The notes below the pieces were generated by a model that saw nothing but the letters and a program-made list of their open reading frames with translations, ran no database searches and was not told the origin of the DNA. Shown piece by piece: positions 22,150 to 46,356 of a stretch of DNA of 64,000 nucleotides (positions are counted from its first letter, which is position 1; every line of letters begins with the position of its first letter). This DNA comes from Octopus vulgaris (lineage: Eukaryota): the NCBI GenBank assembly GCA_951406725.2, contig OX597827.1, positions 45,012,001-45,076,000 on the forward strand, read 5' to 3'. The position numbers and the translations under genes are program-made.

Positions 22150-25100
22150 ATTGAGTTGAAGCATTGGTGTAACCATGATGTTCTGGTGATCTGATGAGCT
22201 AGATTTCTGTATTTGCATGTGTAAAAGATTCGAGCGAGGTCATTGCCAGTGCCACCTGACTGGCCCCGTGCCGGTGGCATGTAAAAGCATCCACTACACT
22301 CTCGGAGTGGTTGGCGTTAGGAAGGGCATCAAGCTGTAGAAACTCTGCTAGATCAAGATTGAAGCCTGGTGCAGCCGTCTGGTTCGCCAGCCCTCAGTCA
22401 TTCGTCCAACCCATGCTAGCATGGAAAGCGGATGTTAAACGATGATGATGATGATGATGATGATGAAATTATTATTACATGTAAAAGGCTGTGAAATGGT
22501 TGTAATCCTAAGGATGACATGTGGTTAAATAAACATATTCATCTCTCATACCTCCTGACTTTATATATATACACACATATACACACTCATACCTATTCAC
22601 ACATACTTTTGAATGTCTTATTCATGCGTTCATGTCCACATGTAAGAATAATGTGTTGTTATTTCTCTTTATAACCAGAAATCTGAAGCAAACATTCCTA
22701 TCCGAACTGATCGGAAACGTAAAGTAGCATTGTTGATGGCATACTCCGGAGAGGGTTACTATGGCATCCAAGTGTGAGTAGACGAAACGTTTCATCTATG
22801 TCTGTAATGTTGTTGTTCTTGTTGTTTTAGCCCCAGGTCTCTCCTTAGTTGACAGACCGTGTTTGAAGTGTGATAATAGTAATTTTTTTTTCAGAGCTCA
22901 CTATTTCTAGGAATACAGTATAAAAATCCTTCATTTTATAAGACATTAGTATGTGAATCAAAGGAGATTTAGCTGCTATTTCTATTGAGTAACCACAGAG
23001 GCATCTTCATTGGTGTGTTGAATTCAATCAGATTTGGCCTATAGTGAGTTACACTAACTTCAGATATGTACTTCTGAAATCCTGTATGGTTAATTGCCGA
23101 CATTTGTATAGATCAGTGGTTTTTTACCAGGGTCCAAATGATCCTTAGGGGGCCATATGGTATTTTGTTGTTGAAATTCATGTTCAATAAACAGGTTATA
23201 CCTCTTACAATACTCATAATATTTTAGCAATTTTTTTAATACAATTCTAAATAGTATTTAACTATAAAAAACATAATAGGATTTTTTAAGCATTGAATGA
23301 CTCTGAGGATTCAGTTGAGTAAAAGAGGAACCAAAGGGGCCCACAAGCAGAAGATAGTTGAGAACCACTTGTATAAATTATTTGCAGTTTGACCAGAGAA
23401 TGTGTAGTCTTCACTTGCATTGAGATTGAATGGGACATGACTTCCTTGAATTTTGGGGGGTATTTTTTTGTAATCAGGTCCACAAAGTCAGCATTGTGAG
23501 TTTTAACCATCTTACAGCAACGCTCTCTGCCCTCTTCTCTCTCAATCTTTCTCATGTTTTTCACTATCTTACTCTCTACCTTGTTCTTCCCTCTCTATCT
23601 ATCTTACCTTCTTCCTCACTTTCTTCTCTCTGCCTCACTTACACTCTTCGTCACTCTCCCCTTATTGCATATATCACTCTCTTCCTCACACTTTCCTATC
23701 TGCCTCTCTATCTCCCTACTTCACTTCCTCTCTCTCTCTCTTTCTCTCTTTCTGTCTTACTGACTGCCTCTCTATCCACTTTTATTTCTCTCTGTCTCTG
23801 CTTTCCTTTCTCTCTACCAACCTCATTCTCTGTTCCTCTGTCTCATTTCTCCTCCTCTACCAACTTTCTCTATTTCCATGCAGGTCACTCCTCCACATCA
23901 CATGGACACTCAAAAAAAGCATTCTAAAACTTTACTATATTTTCATTTCACATTTGATTTTACTTCCATTTTTATTTTTCTCTCTTTCATGAACAATTTC
24001 TAGTAATTCCGCTTTCCCAACAATTGAGAGTGAACTGTTCAAGGCACTGGTTGCTGTTGGACTTGTGCCACAAGACCATGTGGACAACCCATATAAGGTA
24101 AGTGTGTGTGTTGTTAATCTACACCAGTGGTTCCCAGCCGGGGTTCATATAGCCCCTGTCGGTCCATATAAGATTTTTGGGAGTCCACACAAGAAAATAG
24201 TGAATTGGGGACCCACAATAGAATTTGAAGGGACCCTGAAAAAATTTTGCTGGTGCCATGTAAAAAGCATCCAGCCCACACTGCGAAGTGCTTAGCATTC
24301 GGAAAGGGCATCCAACTGTAAAAACCTTGCCAAAACTGACTTTGCTTGTGCTGGTGCCATGTAAAAAGCACTCGGTCCTCTTTGCTGGGTGGTTGGTGTT
24401 ATGAAGGGCATTCAGCCATAAAAACCATGCCAAAACAGACACAGAAGCCTGGTGTAGTCTTCTACCTGGCCAGCTCTTGTCAAACTGTCTGATGCATGCC
24501 AGCATGGAAGGTAGATGTTACACGATGATGATGATGATGATGATGATGATGATATGTATTGCAAGAAGCACCTAGGTTTCTTTCTCTAACATTTTAAGTA
24601 TTTCATCCTACACATGTTATCATCATCATTTAACATCTGTTGTCCATGCTGGCATGGGTTGGATGGTTTGACAGGAGCTGGTAAACTGGAAGGCTGCACC
24701 AGACTCCAGTCTGATTTGGCATGATTTTCTATGGCTGGATGCCTTTCCTAACGCCAACCACTCCGAGAATAGAATGGGTGCTTTTACGTGCCATTTACGT
24801 GACACTAGTATCTGCCACAGCTGCGGTTTTGCTCAGCTTGATGTGTCTCCTTCCCAAGCATGACATAATGCCAAAGGTCTCAGTCATTGCCTCCGTGAGA
24901 CCCAATGCTTGAAAGGTGCTCTTTATGTGCCAGTTATGTGACACCAGCAAATATGTGAAAAACAAAATAGGAAATTTTGAAAGATGTTTCTATAAAACTA
25001 TTTTTTAAACATTGAATGACTATGGGGGTCCAACAGAATAAAATAGTAATCAAAGGGGTCCAGAGATAAAAAAATAGTTGAGAACCCCTGATCTATGCTA

Positions 25101-28100
25101 ATATTCCTCGTGTGGATGTGTTTTTTTTATGCATATTAATGTCCTCTATGTTAAGCAGAGGCATAGTTGTGCGGCAAGAAGTTTGCTTCCCAACCACATG
25201 GCTCTGTAATATTGGTATCAAATTTTGGGATGAGGCCAGCAAGCTCAAGGGAGGGGGTAAGTTGATTATATTGATCCCAATGCTCAACTGGTTCTTATTT
25301 TATCAACACTGATAAAATGAAAGACAAAGTTGATGTCAGTGGAGTTTGAACTCAGAACTTAAAGACATACGAAAATGTCACGGAGTATTTTGCCTGGTGT
25401 GCTAACGATTCTGCCAGTTCACTGCCTTCTGAGCTGAAAGAAATATTGCAAGGCATTTCGACCCCAGTATGCAACTGGTACTTAATTTATCGATCCCAAA
25501 AGGATGAAAGGCAAAGTTGACCTTGGCAGAATTTGAACTCAGAATGTAGCAGTAGGCGAAATACCGTTAAGCATTTCACCCCTCGTGCTAACATTTCTGC
25601 CAGCTCACCGCCTTCTACCTGTTACTGCTAACCAACTGACCTTGTCCTAGTAAACATTGAAGTCATGCATTTTTTTTCTTGTTTTTTTTTCAGATGTCTT
25701 TCCAAAGAGCTGCTCGTACAGATAAAGGTGTATCTGCTATTGGACAAGTTGTTTCACTGAAGATAAGTATCTGAACTGTTTTATTGTGTTATTTAAATTT
25801 TATACCTCATAACACCTCTAATTAGTCAAGCCAGCTCCATGTGAAGGATACCAGTGTTAGCAGCACATAAAAAGCACCTGTGTTGCTGCCATGTGAAGAG
25901 CATCTGTGCTTGTACCACAGAAAAAGCATTCATGCTGGCACCACATTAAAAACACCCATGTCAGCACCTTGTAAAAAGTACCCTTGCTGACATCATGTAA
26001 TCAGTACCCATGTTGCTGTCACATATAAAGTACCTGTGCTGGCACCGTGTAAAAGCAACCAGTACACTCTGTAAAGTGGTTGGCATTAGAAAGGGTATCC
26101 AGCCATAGAAACCATTCCAAAACAGACAATTGGGGCCAAATGCAGCTCTCCAGCTTGTCAGCTCCTGTTGAACCATCCAACCCATGCCATCATGATACAG
26201 ACATAACACAGGCTACGCTTTCAGGTTTTTTGGGTAAAGTTTTCAGAAATAACCCAATAACTTTACCATTAATTCTGTGAAATATTCTCGGGTCCTGTTA
26301 GTACCTATTAATTTCAGTCACAAGGCATTTGACAGCCCATGGCTATCATAGACGTTTTCAGATATTTGTGTCTGCAATAGAATTGCTGAATGCATTCAAA
26401 TGGTGAGAGATATTTCCTTTTAGCTCACATTTGCTGCCTTTGTTTAAGTCAAATATTCCAGTTAAGAAAATGGCAGTTTGTATGTTGGAAGATATTAAGC
26501 GAGCGACTAGAATCCTTCGATCACCTCTGTCTACGCTGCATCCTTCGTGTCCAATGGCATCACTTTGTCTCCAACAATTTGGTGCGACACCAGTACAAAA
26601 TCACCTCCCTCCGACAAGTCATCCTAACGAGATGTCTACGTTGGCTAGGTCATGCCCTCCGTTGTCAACTAGGAGAATTCGTATATGAAGCAGTTGCCCC
26701 AGCTCCCCTTCGGGGCTGGCGAAAGCGATGTGGTGGACAATGAAAAACATAGCTAATGACAGTCAAAGCTGATCTGGAACCCAACCTAGGCCCCCATATC
26801 TACAGCATTCGCCGCTGGAATAAGGAGTGGTTGGAGATCACGTGGTCGCTAGCCTCAAATCGCCAGGTCTAGTTGGCATTTGTGAGAGATGCAGCACTGA
26901 GGACGAATGAAGCCAGCTCAACCCACCCCTGGTGAATGCTGTCTCAAGACAAGACAAGACAGTTTGTATGTTGGGGTACAAGAAAATGGCAGTTGGGGTA
27001 CACATCATACTTAGAGGCTTTGCTTTATTGCTTAATGTTTTTTATATATTTTTTTTTTACATGTTGATACATTTTGATAATTTGATTGATCGACTCAATG
27101 AGACACTTCCAAAACAGATCAGAATCTTAGGTAAGTCAGTCTTTTAAATGATTTTAAATCTCTTGTTTTGTGGGTTTTCTCTTTCTCTTGTTTGTTTTAT
27201 GGTTTTATTATTTATTGTTTGGTATGGGGGGGAAAAAAAGAGCCTTCTGATGAGAAATGAATGAAATTTATTTATTTATTTATTCATCGTCATCATCATT
27301 TTTTAAACATTCACTTTTCCATGCTTGCATGGGCCAGACAGTGGTGCATTGAGCATAGTTTCTATGACCAGGTACCCTTCTTGTTGCAAGTCCCTGCTTA
27401 TTTCCAAGCATGGTAATAATCTCTTAGTCTATGGAACAACAAACAGCCTGGACATGCTTGTATGGTAGACTGTCAGTAAACAACACCAGAAGACCATCCA
27501 GAAGCCATTGCTTACAAACCAGCAAACACACAAAAGGGATATACGAACTTACTCACACAACTTAGACACACACACACACACACACACGCGTGCGACAGGC
27601 TTCTTTCAATTTCCGTCTTGCAAACCCACAGACAAAACTTTGGTAGGCTGGGAACTATAGTAGAAGATACTTGCCCAAAATGCCATGCATTGGGATTGAA
27701 ACTGTGTGGCTGGGAAGCAAACTTCCTTACTACACTGCCTTGCTTGCACCTATCTTGCTTTCTACAATTTGCTTTCTACACAAAATTTCTAAATCGAAAT
27801 GAAAAGAGATAACATTTGAGCTGGTAGTGAGTCAACTGGTTTATTGTGTATCAATTCTAATTTTCTCTCGTGCTTTTCATTTTTGTAGGCATGCTGCGTA
27901 CTACAAATTCTTTCAACAGTAAGAACCATTGTTCACATCGTACATACATTTATGTTATGCCAACGTTTGCACTGACTCCTGTAGAAGAGGTATGTATGTT
28001 GAAAATTGCATCTACAATGACAATTTTTTTTTTTTTTTTTTGCAATATTTGTTATTTAACTCTTTCGATACCAACCAGCCTAAAACCGCCTCTGGCTCTG

Positions 28101-38678: not shown

Positions 38679-40639
38679 GTATGTGTGTGTGTGTGTGGAC
38701 TGGGTGCTTTAAGTGGTATCTGCACTGACAGGGTCACCAATTACTTGCAAGACAACACACACACACACACACACGCATGCACGCACGCGATGGTTTTTCT
38801 GCATTCTTGGTCTACCAAATTCTGCCACAAAGCCTCGGGCTACAGTAGAAGGCATTTAATCAAAGTGCTACACTGTGAGATTGAACTTGAAACCATGTAC
38901 TTAAGAAGCAAAATACTTAACAACATAACCACACCTCTGCCAGTTAACTTAGATATTATAAAATTTTTTCTTAAACATGAAGAAAATCTGAAAAATTATG
39001 ATCATATTAGGAATCCTTCTTTCTAGAACCTTTATTCATGTTATTCTTCTTATTTTCTTTCTAGGAGCAAATGGAGAATTTTAAAGAAGAATTTATCATG
39101 AAAAACATTGTCGAGAAAGAGAAAGAAGAGAAATCGTATCCTTAAATTCTTTACTAACTTTGGTCTCTATGACAACCAATACATATGTGTTCTTGTAATT
39201 TCATGACGTTGTTGTTGATGATAATGTTGGTGTTGTAAAGAGGGAGTTGATGAAAAAAAAAAAAAGGACCCTGCCTATTGTTGTTATTGTTGAACTCAAG
39301 TGGGTCCCTGTCAGAGCAGACTTATGATTTCAAGACATTTCAGCCATCACCTTCTTGCCTTCTTTTCAAATAGGGTATTTCTAGGGATTCATTATAGCGT
39401 TATTCTTTTTTCTTCAAGATGTTAGGGTGTAATTTGAGAGAATTTTGGCTGCTATTTCTAACAGGTTGAATGATTGTACAGAGGACCTCTCATTGGCTCA
39501 TTATGTCCAGCAACAGCTGTTGTTGTTGTTTGGACCATGGTCAGCCCTGAATGGGCTGATCTGATGTCATATGCATTAGGGTCATGCCGATCCTACTTTT
39601 CTTGTTAAGGCAGCCTAGGGTGGTTTTACTACCTGGCCGGCTCCTGTCAACCGACCTACCCATGCATGCATGGAAGATGGACATTAAACGATGATGATGA
39701 TAGAAATAACTAAGCATCAGTTTGGATTATATAAAGCTTTATTTTATATTTTAAAAAATTCTACAGTGCACTTGGATACCCTTTACAATACACCAGTGCT
39801 TTGCAGTGCATTGTTGGAAAACCGATGATTCTCTGTCTCGAAAAAACTTGAAGGACGTCTATTGGTTGGTCATAATTGTGAATCTTCAAGTAAGGGACAT
39901 AACTCTACACTTTTCAAGTTGGGTGAATCGTATAAAACCTTTCTCATTGGTTCATGTGTGTGTGTGTGTGTTGCACGTGTGGTGATGCAGTGTTTAGTTA
40001 GTCTTCGTTTCCTGTTAGTGTAAAATCTTCCTTGACTCTTTAATCTCTCAGTCTCTTCAACTGGCTGCCTTGCCTCCACCATCACTGCTACAAGGCTCAC
40101 GTTGGCCCCATTGCTGGGAAGTCGTCACTCCACCATGCGATGCGGAAACTCTATAAGTTAGAGAAGGCAAAGTTAGACGTTGCGCAACCAGCATGAAAAG
40201 GAAACAGAGGTGGGGACGGAGGTGGGGAGCGGGGGTAAGAGAGAAGAAGAGGAAGAGGAAGAGAACAAGAATAGGATAAAATAACAAGAAATAACAAACA
40301 AACAAATAGAAAAACACGTTTATGTTTTAAATAATTGAGAGGCAATACCAGCATGAAAGAAAAAAAAAATTCAATAATTAGTGTTGATATACTGGGTTGG
40401 CCATAAGTCACCCAACAGCAAATCAAAATTCCATAAATACTTTCTGTTATTCCGTATTGACTCGAATGGAAAAATGTGTCGCTCAAAAAGGACTTCAGCT
40501 TGAACAATTTTCATGTTGTTCTATATTTAGATGCTTTTATTTAAATTAATTCAGTTGTTAAACATAAATAAATCTTGGAATTAAAAGGTTTTGATTTACT
40601 GTCAAGTGACTTTTGGTCAACCCTGTGTGTATGTGTGTT

Positions 40640-40672
<33 letters not shown>

Positions 40673-43600
40673 TTGGCCAAAAGTCCCCTGACAGTAAATT
40701 AAAATTCCATAAATACAATCTGTGATTCTGTATATTTGAATGGGAAAATGTGTCACTCAAGAAGGACTTCAGTTTGAACAATTTCCATAATTGAACATAA
40801 ATTTTCATAATTAAACATAAATAAATCTTGGAATGAAATGGTTTTGATTTACTGTCGGGTGACCTTTGGCCAGCTCTGCATTTAATGAATGCAAAGGCGG
40901 TGTGCTTGGCAGAACTGTTACCTCATTGGACAATAAAGCCTAGCAGTATTCCTTCCAACTTTATGTTCTGAGTTCAAATGCTGCCAAGGTCAACTTTGTC
41001 TTTCATCCCTTCAGGGTCAATAAAATAAATACCAGTTGAACGTTGAGGTCGATGTAATTGACTTAGCCCCACCCCTCAAAACTGCTGGCCTTGTGTTTAA
41101 AATTTGAAACCAATGTATTAAATGAGCAGAATATTAATATACGGTAACAAATACTGTTTTTGATGGCATAAAAGACACATAGGAGTATTAGATACACCCC
41201 CACAATTTCATCATCATCATCATCATCATCATCATCGTTTAACGTCTGCTTTCTATGCTGGCATTTATTCATTCATTCATCTAATTTTCTCCCAGGTTGG
41301 CTGACCGAAAACTATTGGTTATAGCTCTAGTTAAGAATGCAAATACCCAATTCTATCTCATAATTATTATTACTATTCTTTCACACTGGCAGCCTGAGTT
41401 TTTGCTGTTTGACGGTGCCCAGTTCTATCTCATTATTATCACTACATCCGTGTATCATCAACATCATCGTTTAGCGTCCGCTTTCCATGCTGGCATGGGT
41501 TGGATGGTGCAACTGAGGTCTGGGAAGCCAGAAGGTTGCACCAGGCCCAGTCTGATCTGGCAATGTTTCTACGACTGGATGCCCTTCCTAACACCAACCA
41601 CTCCATGAGTATATATTCAAGAAAAGTAGTTTTTAGTGTATTAAAGCTTATGGGAGGCCCAAATTCACATATAGAACCCAGGGTGGTTATTTTGAAACGT
41701 CTTTTTGGAGGAAAAGTGCATTTTATATTCCTTCATATATGAGGAGGTGCTAGAAAGTTCTTGGCTTTGGGTAAAAGAAAATGCAGGAGGATTAGTTAAT
41801 TATGATTTTATCTAATATATTCCCCTCTCAGATTCACACACTTATTGCAGTGATCCTACAGTTTTTCTAAGCCTTGTAAAGAACTTGGAAGGTTGGGCCT
41901 TCAACCATGCCTTCCACGATACCCTTAAAGCCAGGAACTTTGCAGTATTTCCTCATATGATAATTGTAAGGTGAAGACTACAAATTATTTTGGTAAATAA
42001 ATTGTTAATGCTATTTTATGTGTCTAACAAATTTGTTTTTGTTGTTGCTAGATGAGGGAGTGAGGGGAAGAGCCTGTGGCTTTTGCAAGTTCTCCTACAC
42101 TGGGAGATTGGTGTTACTATTCCCCTTGAGCTTCTGTCAATCAATACCTGTGGGAAAGTCATGGACAGAGAGGGAATTCCAGTGATTGAAGGGAGGAAGG
42201 GCTGTGTTTAATTGTTAGTGCAGCATCTGGTGGTGGTAAGGCACAACAAAGGTGCTGAGAGGAGGGAGACCTGTAGGAAAGGAATGCCTGAGTGAGAGTG
42301 ACATGAGCCCAGTTAGCTTCAAGGAGCAGAGGCCATTATAGTAGTGGTAGGAAAGACAGAAGGAGAGGAAACAGTATGCCTCTGGGCCAGAGGCTGGATC
42401 AGCTGTGAATGACTTGATACCACATTGGATGCTTTTTCTGGATGCCTTGCTATATTTAGTTGCAACTCTTTACGTTCTGTGTTCAAATCCTGTTGAAGTT
42501 GATTTTTGCTTTTCTTCCTTCTGGAGTTTGATAGAATACAGTATCAGTTAAATACTGTAGTTGTTATGATTGAAGAATATCCAAGTTTGAAGCATCATTG
42601 TGTCTAGTTTAGGAGTCTAATATTTTGATTATTTTTGGTAAGCATGGGTGACAACTGTGGGTATGTTTTGATCTGTGAGCATCATCATCATCAGCAGCAT
42701 CCTCACCATCATCATCATCACTTAACATCCCATTTTTCATGTTTACATGGGTCAGACAAAATTCGTTGAGGCAAATTTTTATGGTCAGATGCCTTTGCTG
42801 TTGTCAACCGTCACCTGATTCCAAGTAAGGTAATATTTCACGATGGCTAGACATGTTTTTTATGGAAGATTAGATATGAACAAAAGTAATGATAATTTAC
42901 AAAGGTACACACACACACACACATGTATGTAGAGGCATATTGGTTAGTGGGATGTTGCACTCCTGATCTTAACATTGTAGTTTCGATTCCTGGACTTGGA
43001 GGTACATTGTATCCTTGAGCAAAACTCTTCATTTCACATTACTCCAGTTCATTCAGCTGGCAGATATAAGTAATCCTGTGACAGACTGGTTCCCTGTTTT
43101 AGAGGGGAATATATATGCCACAGAATTTGGGAAACCAGCCTCAGAAAAGTCCTTTGGTCATTTGACAGACATGCACAGACATGGCTGTATAGTTAAGAAA
43201 CTTAGGTCCCAACCACTTAGTTCTGATTTCAGACCCATTGTGTCACACCTTGAGTAAGTTTCTTCTGCTATAGCCTTGTGACTGGATTTGGGAGATTGAA
43301 ACCGAAAGAAGCCCATTCATCATCATTGTATAACGTCCGTTTTCCATGCTAGCATGGGTTGGACGGTTCGACCGGGGTCTGGGAAGCCAGGAGGCTGCAC
43401 CAGGCTCCTGTCTGATCTGGCAGTGTTTCTACAGCTTGGATGCCCTTCCTAACACCAACCACTCTGTGAGTGTAGTGGGTGCTTTTTATGTGCCACTGGC
43501 ACAGGGGCCAGAGGAGGCTGGCAAACAGCCACGATCAGTCGGTGCTTTTTACGTGTCACCAACATGGGCGCCAGTCAGGTGGCCACGTTCGGATGGTGCT

Positions 43601-46356
43601 TTTTACATGTCACTGGCATGGGTATCACAACTGCAATTTCCATTTGATTTTTACTTTGATGTTGATGTACTTGACTCAGTAAGTCTCCTCAAGCACAGCG
43701 GGTCACCCTATGATCCAAGGTTAGCACAGCAGGCCATCCTGCAAGCCATGAATTCATTTCATTTGTCGGGTCTTCGCAGTCACAGCATATCTCCAGAGTT
43801 CTTGGTCTTTCGTCATAGCCTCTGTGAGGCCCAGTGTTCGAAGGTCATGCTTGACCACCTCATCCCATGTCTTTCCTGGGTCTACATGGGAAGCCCATTG
43901 TGAAATATATATATTTATAAAATGTGTGAGCTTTTACTCTTCTAGCAAGGTTGGTTTTCTTGGTTGGTGTGTATGATGTGATGAGTAATGCCTTGTCCAC
44001 CCTTACCAGCATAGAAAATCATGTAAAATGGTGCTATATAGCTTGTATGTGTGTATGTATATATTTTTCTCTATGCATGTATATGTGTGTGTATATGTAT
44101 GAATATATTTTTATCTGTATGCATATGTGTGTGTAAATAAGCTGTATTACATATCTGTAGTCAGAGGTTTTAAAAATGTTTTGTGTAATTGAATGTGTGT
44201 ATGTGTGTGTTTGTGTGCATGTGTGTGTGTGTATTTCAGATATATTACACATGTTTATTATCATTGGCCAGTATCTTTTTGAGCTTCTGTTTCTTTTTAA
44301 AATGTTGATTTCTAAGCTACCATTCCTTAACGAGCTTCCAGGATGCTTAATTGGCTTGTCAGTTTACACAACCACACCTTTGGTTACGTGGACGACGAAG
44401 GTAAACGGTTACCTACAGCTATGTATGGGGCACAGAAGAACCTGAAGACAGCAGAAGCTAATTCTCTAAGCAGTGTAAGTTTGTCAGATATTTCAACTAG
44501 ATTGCGGCTTGCTGTTTAACCCTTTAGCATTCAGACTGGCCATGTCCAGCCCAAATATTTAACTTGTTTTATCTTCAAACCGTCCAGATCTGTCCTCTCA
44601 CACTTACCCTACAATGTCATTTTAAAAATTAAACAATCACATCATTGAAATCTCAAAGCTGAGAGCTAAAGCATGATTAATTCAAAATAATATGAATAAA
44701 TAAGCGTTACATTCGACAGAATAATCCGAATGTTAAAGGATTAAAACAAGAAGCCTGTATCATAGAACCAAGAGTGGTCTCAGATGGGTTGCTATCAAAA
44801 GGGGTTAAATATAGGCGTAGGAGTGGCTGTGTGGTAAATAGCTTGCTTACGAACCACATGGTTCCGGGTTCAGTCCCACTGCGTGGCACCTTGGGCAAGT
44901 GTCTTCTACTATAGCCTCAGGCTGACCTTGTGAGTGGATTTGGTAGACGGAAACTGAAAGAAACCTGTCATGTATATATATATACTAGCAGTATCGCCCG
45001 GCGTTGCTCGGGTTTGTAAGGGAAATAACTATAAAGCATTTTTAGAGAGTTATAGCCAAAAAATAGCAAAAAAATGGAAAAAAAATGATGGTAAATTTTT
45101 TTTTGAGAGTTAAAAGGGTCGAGTTGCGTCCCCTAGACAGTCTGTGGTTTGTGTTTCTGATTCTCGACCCCATGTTGAATTTATTGATTTTTTTTCAGAA
45201 CTGGGGGAACTTTTCAAAATTTTTGCTGCGTTAGTTTTGAATTATGACATTGGGCTATGAGTGTGTCAAGTTTCATCAGAATCGGTTGAAAGCCGTGGTC
45301 AGGGTGAGGGTACAACCTGACAGACACACAGACACACACACAGACAAACTGCCGTTTATATATAGAGAGATATATATATGTATGTGTATATGTTTGTGTG
45401 TCTGTGTTTGTCCCCCCACCATCGCTTGACAACTGTTGGTGTGTTTACATCCTCGTAACTTAGTAGTTCGGCAAAAGAGTCTGAGAGAATAAGTACTAGG
45501 CTTACAAAGAATAAGTCCTGGGTTCGATTTGCTCAACTAAAAAGGTGGTGCTCCAGCATGGCCACAGTCAAATGACTGAAACAAGTAAAAGAGTAACGAG
45601 AATATATTCAAATGAACTTAACCTACCAGCTGAAAGAGCTAATCATTTAGCATTTAAACCTACCATATCCATCCCAAATATTCTCCTTGTTTTATGTTCA
45701 GACTGGTCAAATCTTGCCTTTCACACCTAACCTACAATGTCGTTTTAAAAATTAAACAATCACATTATTGAAATCTTAAAGCTGAGAGATAATGCATGAT
45801 TAATTAAAAATAATGTGAATAAATAAGCATTTCATTTGACAGGAGAATCTGAATGCTAAACGGTTAACCTCAAGTTGTCCTTAATTCTGTTTTTGACCAA
45901 AAACCATTCCAACATTGGCCATTTCATCTTTTTGTTTTCTTTTAGGAGTATCTAGGACTTCATAAATTCCTTGTCTAACTCTTTTGTTTCCATATTTCTG
46001 TGGAAATACATGGCTCTTGTTGCATTAATTCACCCCATTCTATGAACCAAACTACATCTCATCATACACTTTGCTTGTCTTCCACCTCCACCTGATCCTG
46101 CAGCCCAACGCCACTTTGTCATCTCTCTCTCTCCTGACTGTCCCCTGGAAAACTGTATCACTGGTATCTGACCACTCCCCTATATATCTGTATCCACCAC
46201 CCACTGAATTTTTCCCTTCTCCTCCCCTCTCTTCCACTTCCCATTTTCATTCTCATGAACTCCCTACACACTCACTCTGTCCAATCTTCAGTACCATTCC
46301 TCCACTTACATTCACCTCCCTTTCACCTGAGGGTAACCCCTGGCTCATCCTCACCA

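Follow-up and report, generated by a model that had tools for sequence, protein, structure and literature searches.

The window analysed here, a stretch of 64,000 nucleotides of Octopus vulgaris DNA (assembly GCA_951406725.2, contig OX597827.1, positions 45,012,001 to 45,076,000 of the forward strand), carries the whole coding span of PUS1. Using the O. sinensis PUS1 protein XP_029645097 as a guide, we mapped 17 coding exons on the plus strand between 19392 and 47285. The introns that separate them comprise 15 with GT-AG ends and one that begins with AT and ends with AC. When the latter is joined at these ends, the 17-exon chain forms an open frame that agrees with O. sinensis PUS1 at 417 of its first 420 residues. 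The protein belongs to the TruA family of pseudouridine synthases, as seen from its PF01416 domain, its RTD catalytic motif and its orthology to named PUS1 proteins. The RTD motif is encoded by a short exon of 23 residues (25694 to 25762, plus strand) that ends with AAG in phase 0 and matches human PUS1 structures (E 7e-7 over 23 aa). Upstream of this catalytic exon, a GT-AG join (24097/25694) is present in contigs from four of four runs. Downstream lies the AT-AC intron (25763 to 27060, plus strand, 1298 nt), followed by an exon whose first codon is ATG (27061 to 27130, plus strand).

At the 5' end of this intron, the exon (...CTGAAG) stops at 25762 and the intron opens with ATAAGTATCTG at 25763. 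At its 3' end, a T-rich tract with a TAC acceptor (27037 to 27060) runs through ten T at 27049-27058 to AC at 27059-27060, directly before the ATG at 27061, and the intron thus reads AAG/ATAAGT...T10-AC/ATG. The sequence AAGATAAGT occurs a single time in the window, both strands counted. Two independent unspliced contigs, one over 25737-26078 and one over 26931-27090, show no letter that differs from the window; they carry 26 and 30 exon-side letters, the bridging minimum of the tool being 31. With no G at 25763 or 27060 in these contigs and AT in 51 of 51 orthologous loci (see below), the AT-AC ends are not a sequencing error. The initial annotation of this stretch had argued as much, and all the coordinates it gave hold on re-reading of the letters. 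The window further contains GTATCT at 25767, a second AC at 27069-27070 and a candidate branch site TTGCTTAAT (27028 to 27036, its A at -26), which is not conserved as a U12 motif. If retained, the intron would bring a stop four codons into its own sequence, directly past the catalytic motif.

We aligned contigs from four runs over positions 23900-28050; none of the runs is recorded as RNA, but all four join exons and they are guessed to be RNA. In three contigs (X2, X9 and X10, from three studies), exactly 138 letters lie between the flanking exons. An AT-AC join predicts 138 letters, a GT-AC join (25766 to 27071) 132, a join at the second AC 128, and the GT-AG pair 25767/27016, which the initial annotation had named as the outcome that would speak against it, 186. 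Thus, the AT-AC join alone fits among the four tested. This count presumes that the next exon junction is as annotated, and the contig listed for the fourth run ended too early to be counted. We infer the join from these letter counts together with annotated proteins, the T-rich stretch at 27033-27064 having been skipped in the contig alignment. SLK-MLI stands at the junction in the RefSeq proteins of O. sinensis and O. bimaculoides, and SLK-ML is likewise found in nine related unnamed proteins. Contigs from three runs and the RefSeq proteins therefore indicate, if indirectly, that the intron is spliced in vivo at its AT-AC ends. The in-frame AT-AC join was proposed in the initial annotation over the GT-AC and GT-AG pairs, and it is the one used; as a main form, the GT-AC alternative is incompatible with the counts. 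Contig depth, considered as a gauge of retention, was 24-213 for spliced contigs, 6.5-20 for intronic pieces and 6.4 (one run) for the next canonical intron; as depth does not measure level and the runs had been preselected for intron words, it carries no weight on retention.

We then turned to metagenome contigs, among which there is DNA of animal hosts, and looked for the catalytic exon with an RTRWSY tail behind it. This tail fixes R, W, S and Y at +3 to +6 and admits GTAAGT, GTGAGT, GTATCC and ATATCC; a GT donor that departs from it at any of these four positions, an intronless gene or a gene in which an intron interrupts the pattern itself falls outside the scan. The scan found 51 orthologous loci, equal to 30 distinct introns. 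Their donors are ATAAGT (35 loci), ATAAGC (7), ATGAGT (6), ATATGT (2) and ATGAGC (1), and none of the 51 loci has a GT or ATATCC donor, though the pattern admitted both. Where the next exon is present (41 of 51 loci), the introns measure 59 to 1661 nt and end with AC in 37 cases and with AA in four, all Acropora-like. Thirty-five of the AC ends were read directly, and two (L007 and L043) were placed by hand 3 nt from the top-scoring position. Counted as distinct introns, 21 of the 23 with an acceptor have YAC and two have TAA. By our own grouping, a single annelid group supplies some 17 of the 30 distinct introns, which leaves about six independent lineages.

We placed 20 of the loci together with 39 proteins in a quick tree, built from partial stitched sequences with SH-aLRT support. 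Two loci (L011 and L025) group with the bivalves Mercenaria and Mya (100), and five others join the clitellate annelid Helobdella (97). Among corals, the AT-AA loci L009 and L021 cluster with Acropora (97), while L043 belongs with the octocorals (100). A further seven sit next to Geodia, outside a group made up of cnidarians and bilaterians (98); they are probably sponge, a label drawn from this position in a tree with no supported sponge clade. The initial annotation had proposed comparing the orthologous intron across groups; in the annelid and bivalve loci, the major-type AT donor is common to all those found. Vertebrates and arthropods are not represented among the scanned loci. Their PUS1 proteins mostly carry V, L or I instead of M after the junction, and our guess is that both groups have lost the intron.

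The acceptor side shows variations of its own. The Acropora-like AT-AA introns (L009, L021, L023 and L050) have the major-type donor ATAAGC or ATGAGC, and their ends are fixed by an in-frame TAA before the ATG and by coral proteins reading K-M. L030, L040 and L043 carry a YAG three bases before the YAC acceptor, and either could serve. In L043 this is a CAG just upstream of AC, which could make it an AT-AG intron; the proteins of named octocorals show K-M without an added residue, and one Paramuricea model begins the exon one residue early, as the upstream AG would yield. After each of the 23 distinct introns with an acceptor, the next exon begins with ATG, which echoes the donor's AT, and V, L, I or A stands at the post-junction position in 129 of 201 PUS1 proteins. 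The invariant ATG may possibly be a splicing constraint.

Gene models in named genomes bear the mark of this junction. In Geodia barretti, one model reads K-M, others read K-I-R and others start within a pyrimidine-rich run ending Y-M. In Nematostella, an older model reads K-I-S and the newer RefSeq model K-M. The K-M models standing beside K-I models in these two genomes indirectly point to the same junction. Elsewhere, the Oculina model starts at the Met, the catalytic exon is skipped in one Stylophora and one Paramuricea model, and the Sinanodonta and Plakobranchus models miss residues across the junction. Such breaks would be the errors expected of predictors at a non-GT-AG intron. Several public PUS1 models in these genera fail precisely at the AT-AC junction, some to the point of losing the catalytic exon.

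PUS1 itself provides a reference for what U12 signals look like. The gene holds a true U12-type GT-AG intron (39136 to 44341, plus strand) with donor GTATCCTT and branch site TTCCTTAAC at 44323-44331, and a second U12-type branch site (40028-40036, plus strand) precedes an acceptor at 40051 and an alternative last exon at 40052-40196. These branch sites lie 12 and 17 nt from the two alternative ends, and the orthologous U12 intron retains its U12 signals in five sponge-like loci. U12 signals are therefore recognisable in these DNAs, and the AT-AC intron is without them. In fact, its donor AAG/ATAAGTAT (25760 to 25770, plus strand) pairs with the 5' end of the genome's own U1 at 9 of 11 positions, with mismatches at -3 and +1, which equals the gene's best donors, when the U12 donor GTATCCTT pairs with U1 at 4 positions. 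Judged by this pairing, it is a U2 donor consensus except at +1. The codon of the junction lysine is AAG at every one of the 31 distinct introns, that of the window among them, so that G-1 is invariant, and the other lysine of the catalytic exon is AAA in 27 of the 31. G+5 is found in all 31 and A+4 in 30, even though the scan pattern allowed C and T there. The U12 donor RTATCCTT is present neither at the window intron nor in any of the 51 loci, and the U12 donor core is matched at no more than 3 of 6 positions. Thus, the major-type donor with a changed +1 described in the initial annotation is well borne out, and we consider it likely that the PUS1 AT-AC intron is removed by the major (U2) spliceosome. 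No U1 variant able to pair with A+1 was seen among the 20 examined of 42 U1 copies, all of which have the standard 5' end. Exclusion of AG or AC before the acceptor was not significant (AG 8 versus 12.7 expected, p 0.07).

Among the competing explanations, the strongest is that the minor spliceosome removes the intron, or that a hybrid route does so with U1 at the donor and U12 at the branch site. U12 introns typically have AT-AC ends, the same gene holds a U12 intron, and both U11 and U6atac genes are present in the genome, so that the major-type assignment is made from the sequence of the intron and not from absent minor machinery. The window also offers TTGCTTAAT, which matches the U12 branch motif at 8 of 9 positions (p about 0.04 taken alone, expected once per 24 tests). 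However, its A lies 26 nt from the intron end, as against 12 and 17 nt at the true U12 ends of the gene. No conserved TCCTTAAC-type branch site was found near the 3' end in 24 introns, where the best match to the U12 branch motif is no better than chance (mean 5.54 of 9, versus 5.64 of 9 in shuffles). These results, the lack of any U12 donor in 51 loci and the invariance of G-1 and G+5 make the minor or hybrid route improbable, all the more as human major AT-AC introns are described as unresponsive to CENATAC loss (de Wolf et al., PMC8280824). Matches resembling U6atac are scattered over the genome in 43 places, versus 5 for U11, and are probably dispersed pseudogenes.

The same sequences could be read as remnants of a recent, cephalopod-specific U12-to-U2 conversion with a live GT-AC alternative, given that GTATCT at +5, TTGCTTAAT and the second in-frame AC are all there. 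This is a narrow form of the reading in the initial annotation, which had favoured a U12-to-U2 conversion that kept its AT-AC ends. The U12 relics on which it draws find no support. The GT of GTATCT is simply the consensus G+5/T+6, and the letters that follow are not conserved: GTATCCTT is matched at 6 of 8 positions in only one of the 31 distinct introns, the window having 5. Likewise, TTGCTTAAT loses its standing as a relic with orthologues at chance and its A at -26. Moreover, the major-type AT donor is common to annelid, bivalve, coral and sponge-like loci, a ATATCCTT donor occurs in none of the 51, and the 138 letters exclude GT-AC as the main form. A recent conversion is thus very unlikely, and the intron would be an old, stable exception rather than the product of a recent switch.

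Cephalopods edit their RNA heavily, and A-to-I editing could make the first A of the intron G-like, so that an ordinary donor is read; AT-AA introns of corals could even be edited at both ends to GT-AG. Edited AT-AG and GT-AA sites have been described in human (PMC4176328). But no such editing would make a G of the last C, and AC stands at 37 of 41 ends; nor does the contig that covers 25763 contain a different letter there, weak evidence given that contigs drop rare variants; editing is as poor a candidate as recent conversion. Poorer still is the view that the mRNA uses the GT donor 25767 with AG 27016 or AC 27070 and that AT-AC is an alignment artefact, because both joins, although they preserve the frame and would give the K-I of some other-species models, predict 186 or 132 letters against the 138 of three contigs, and against the SLK-ML of octopus RefSeq and nine related proteins and the passage of Nematostella from K-I in the older model to K-M in the newer.

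We therefore favour, with considerable confidence, an AT-AC intron in PUS1 that is probably U2-spliced, whose AT start is found at one and the same position in annelid, bivalve, coral and probably sponge genes, and which is likely of early-animal age. We envision that U1 would bind the donor despite the mismatch at +1, with strong pairing at -2, -1 and +2 to +8 making up for it, and that U2 would select a branch site of the ordinary kind ahead of the T-rich tract. At the second step, an A-C pair between the first and last bases of the intron would stand in for the G-G pair that normally forms. According to Wilkinson et al. (10.1101/212811), the major spliceosome could accept AU/AC ends, the A-C pair being modelled and not observed. 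The intron would persist because a return to GT-AG would require a change at both ends, while the last base may drift to A, as in Acropora-like corals. Such a trap was proposed by Lin et al. (2010, PMC2831892), in whose model a U12 AT-AC intron on rare occasions gives rise to such an intron, which is then held in place because both ends must change together. With no GT in 30 distinct introns, our data fit this model, and the coral AT-AA form indicates that the last base can drift. As in the model, the PUS1 intron combines G+5, A+4 and T+6 with long persistence; unlike its sodium-channel basis, some coral PUS1 introns have drifted to a last-base A and the U12 ancestor state was not found. In fact, with no U12-type orthologue in 51 loci, any conversion predates the divergence of these animal groups. 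The phase 0 position and the U12 neighbour make an ancient U12 origin plausible, phase 0 introns being argued to convert more readily (Moyer et al., PMC7367187), although the U12 state is seen in 0 of 51 loci. On balance, we would put an ancient U12-to-U2 conversion at about even chances.

U2-type AT-AC introns are rare, as the initial annotation had noted: Sheth et al. (2006, PMC1557818) count 15 in human, 6 in mouse and 3 in fly, mostly in sodium-channel genes that also carry U12 introns. Examples of this AT-AC II class include human SCN4A and SCN5A, and TAF2, common to human and Drosophila (PMC1557818). De Wolf et al. (PMC8280824) describe TAF2 intron 1 and SYCP2 intron 5 as major AT-AC introns, and mention 85 human major AT-AC or related introns. 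The PUS1 intron is a new, deeply conserved member of this class. Like the others, it has AT-AC ends, a U2 consensus except at +1, the /ATAAGT donor that is the class consensus (PMC5029451) and conservation in orthologues, and like the sodium-channel genes PUS1 also hosts a U12 intron. Unlike them, it belongs to another gene family, reaches non-bilaterian animals and has an AT-AA variant, its U2 class being assigned from sequence alone. With U12-type AT-AC introns, it shares the terminal dinucleotides and also the AT-AA form, the commonest non-canonical U12 form (PMC10639083); it differs from them in having no ATATCCTT donor or conserved U12 branch, but an invariant exonic G-1 and a T-rich tract. 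We found no published report of an AT-AC intron in PUS1, our search standing apart from intron databases (IAOD, MIDB, intronIC tables) and the supplements of Sheth et al., which may list it. PUS1 is not named in the main text of PMC10639083 or PMC4176328, nor in supplements of PMC6717393 and PMC10639083.

Few major-spliceosome AT-AC introns are known, and what is at stake is why they persist. PUS1 offers a natural allelic series, with AT-AC, AT-AA and AG three bases upstream of AC, and a U12 control within the gene. This series allows a direct test of whether the intron is caught because two changes would be needed at once or is maintained for regulation, and it also probes the pairing of first and last bases in the major spliceosome. 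A regulatory role is thinkable, since a retained intron would meet a stop four codons in and Pus1 acts on U2 snRNA, which it modifies in the branch-pairing region (PMC7960923). The intron could have been kept since the first animals as a slow valve that ties PUS1 output to the major spliceosome, with last-exon choice tied to the minor one through the U12 intron. This scenario seems unlikely; were it true, PUS1 output would be coupled to the state of the major spliceosome through U2 snRNA modification.

The U12 intron brings further observations. In a sponge-like animal, two PUS1 copies lie in tandem on single contigs, some 5.5 kb from each other (L013/L014 and L041/L042), and the AT-AC and U12 introns are kept in both copies. 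In the octopus window, the U12 donor at 39136 is followed by two U12-type 3' ends, leading to exons at 40052-40196 and 44342 (span 39136-44474). These exons begin with similar peptides and may be duplicates. Both last-exon forms are found in O. sinensis RefSeq, 44342 as isoform X1 and 40052 as X2, and the 40052 form is also found in O. bimaculoides. Choosing an alternative last exon via the minor spliceosome is unusual.
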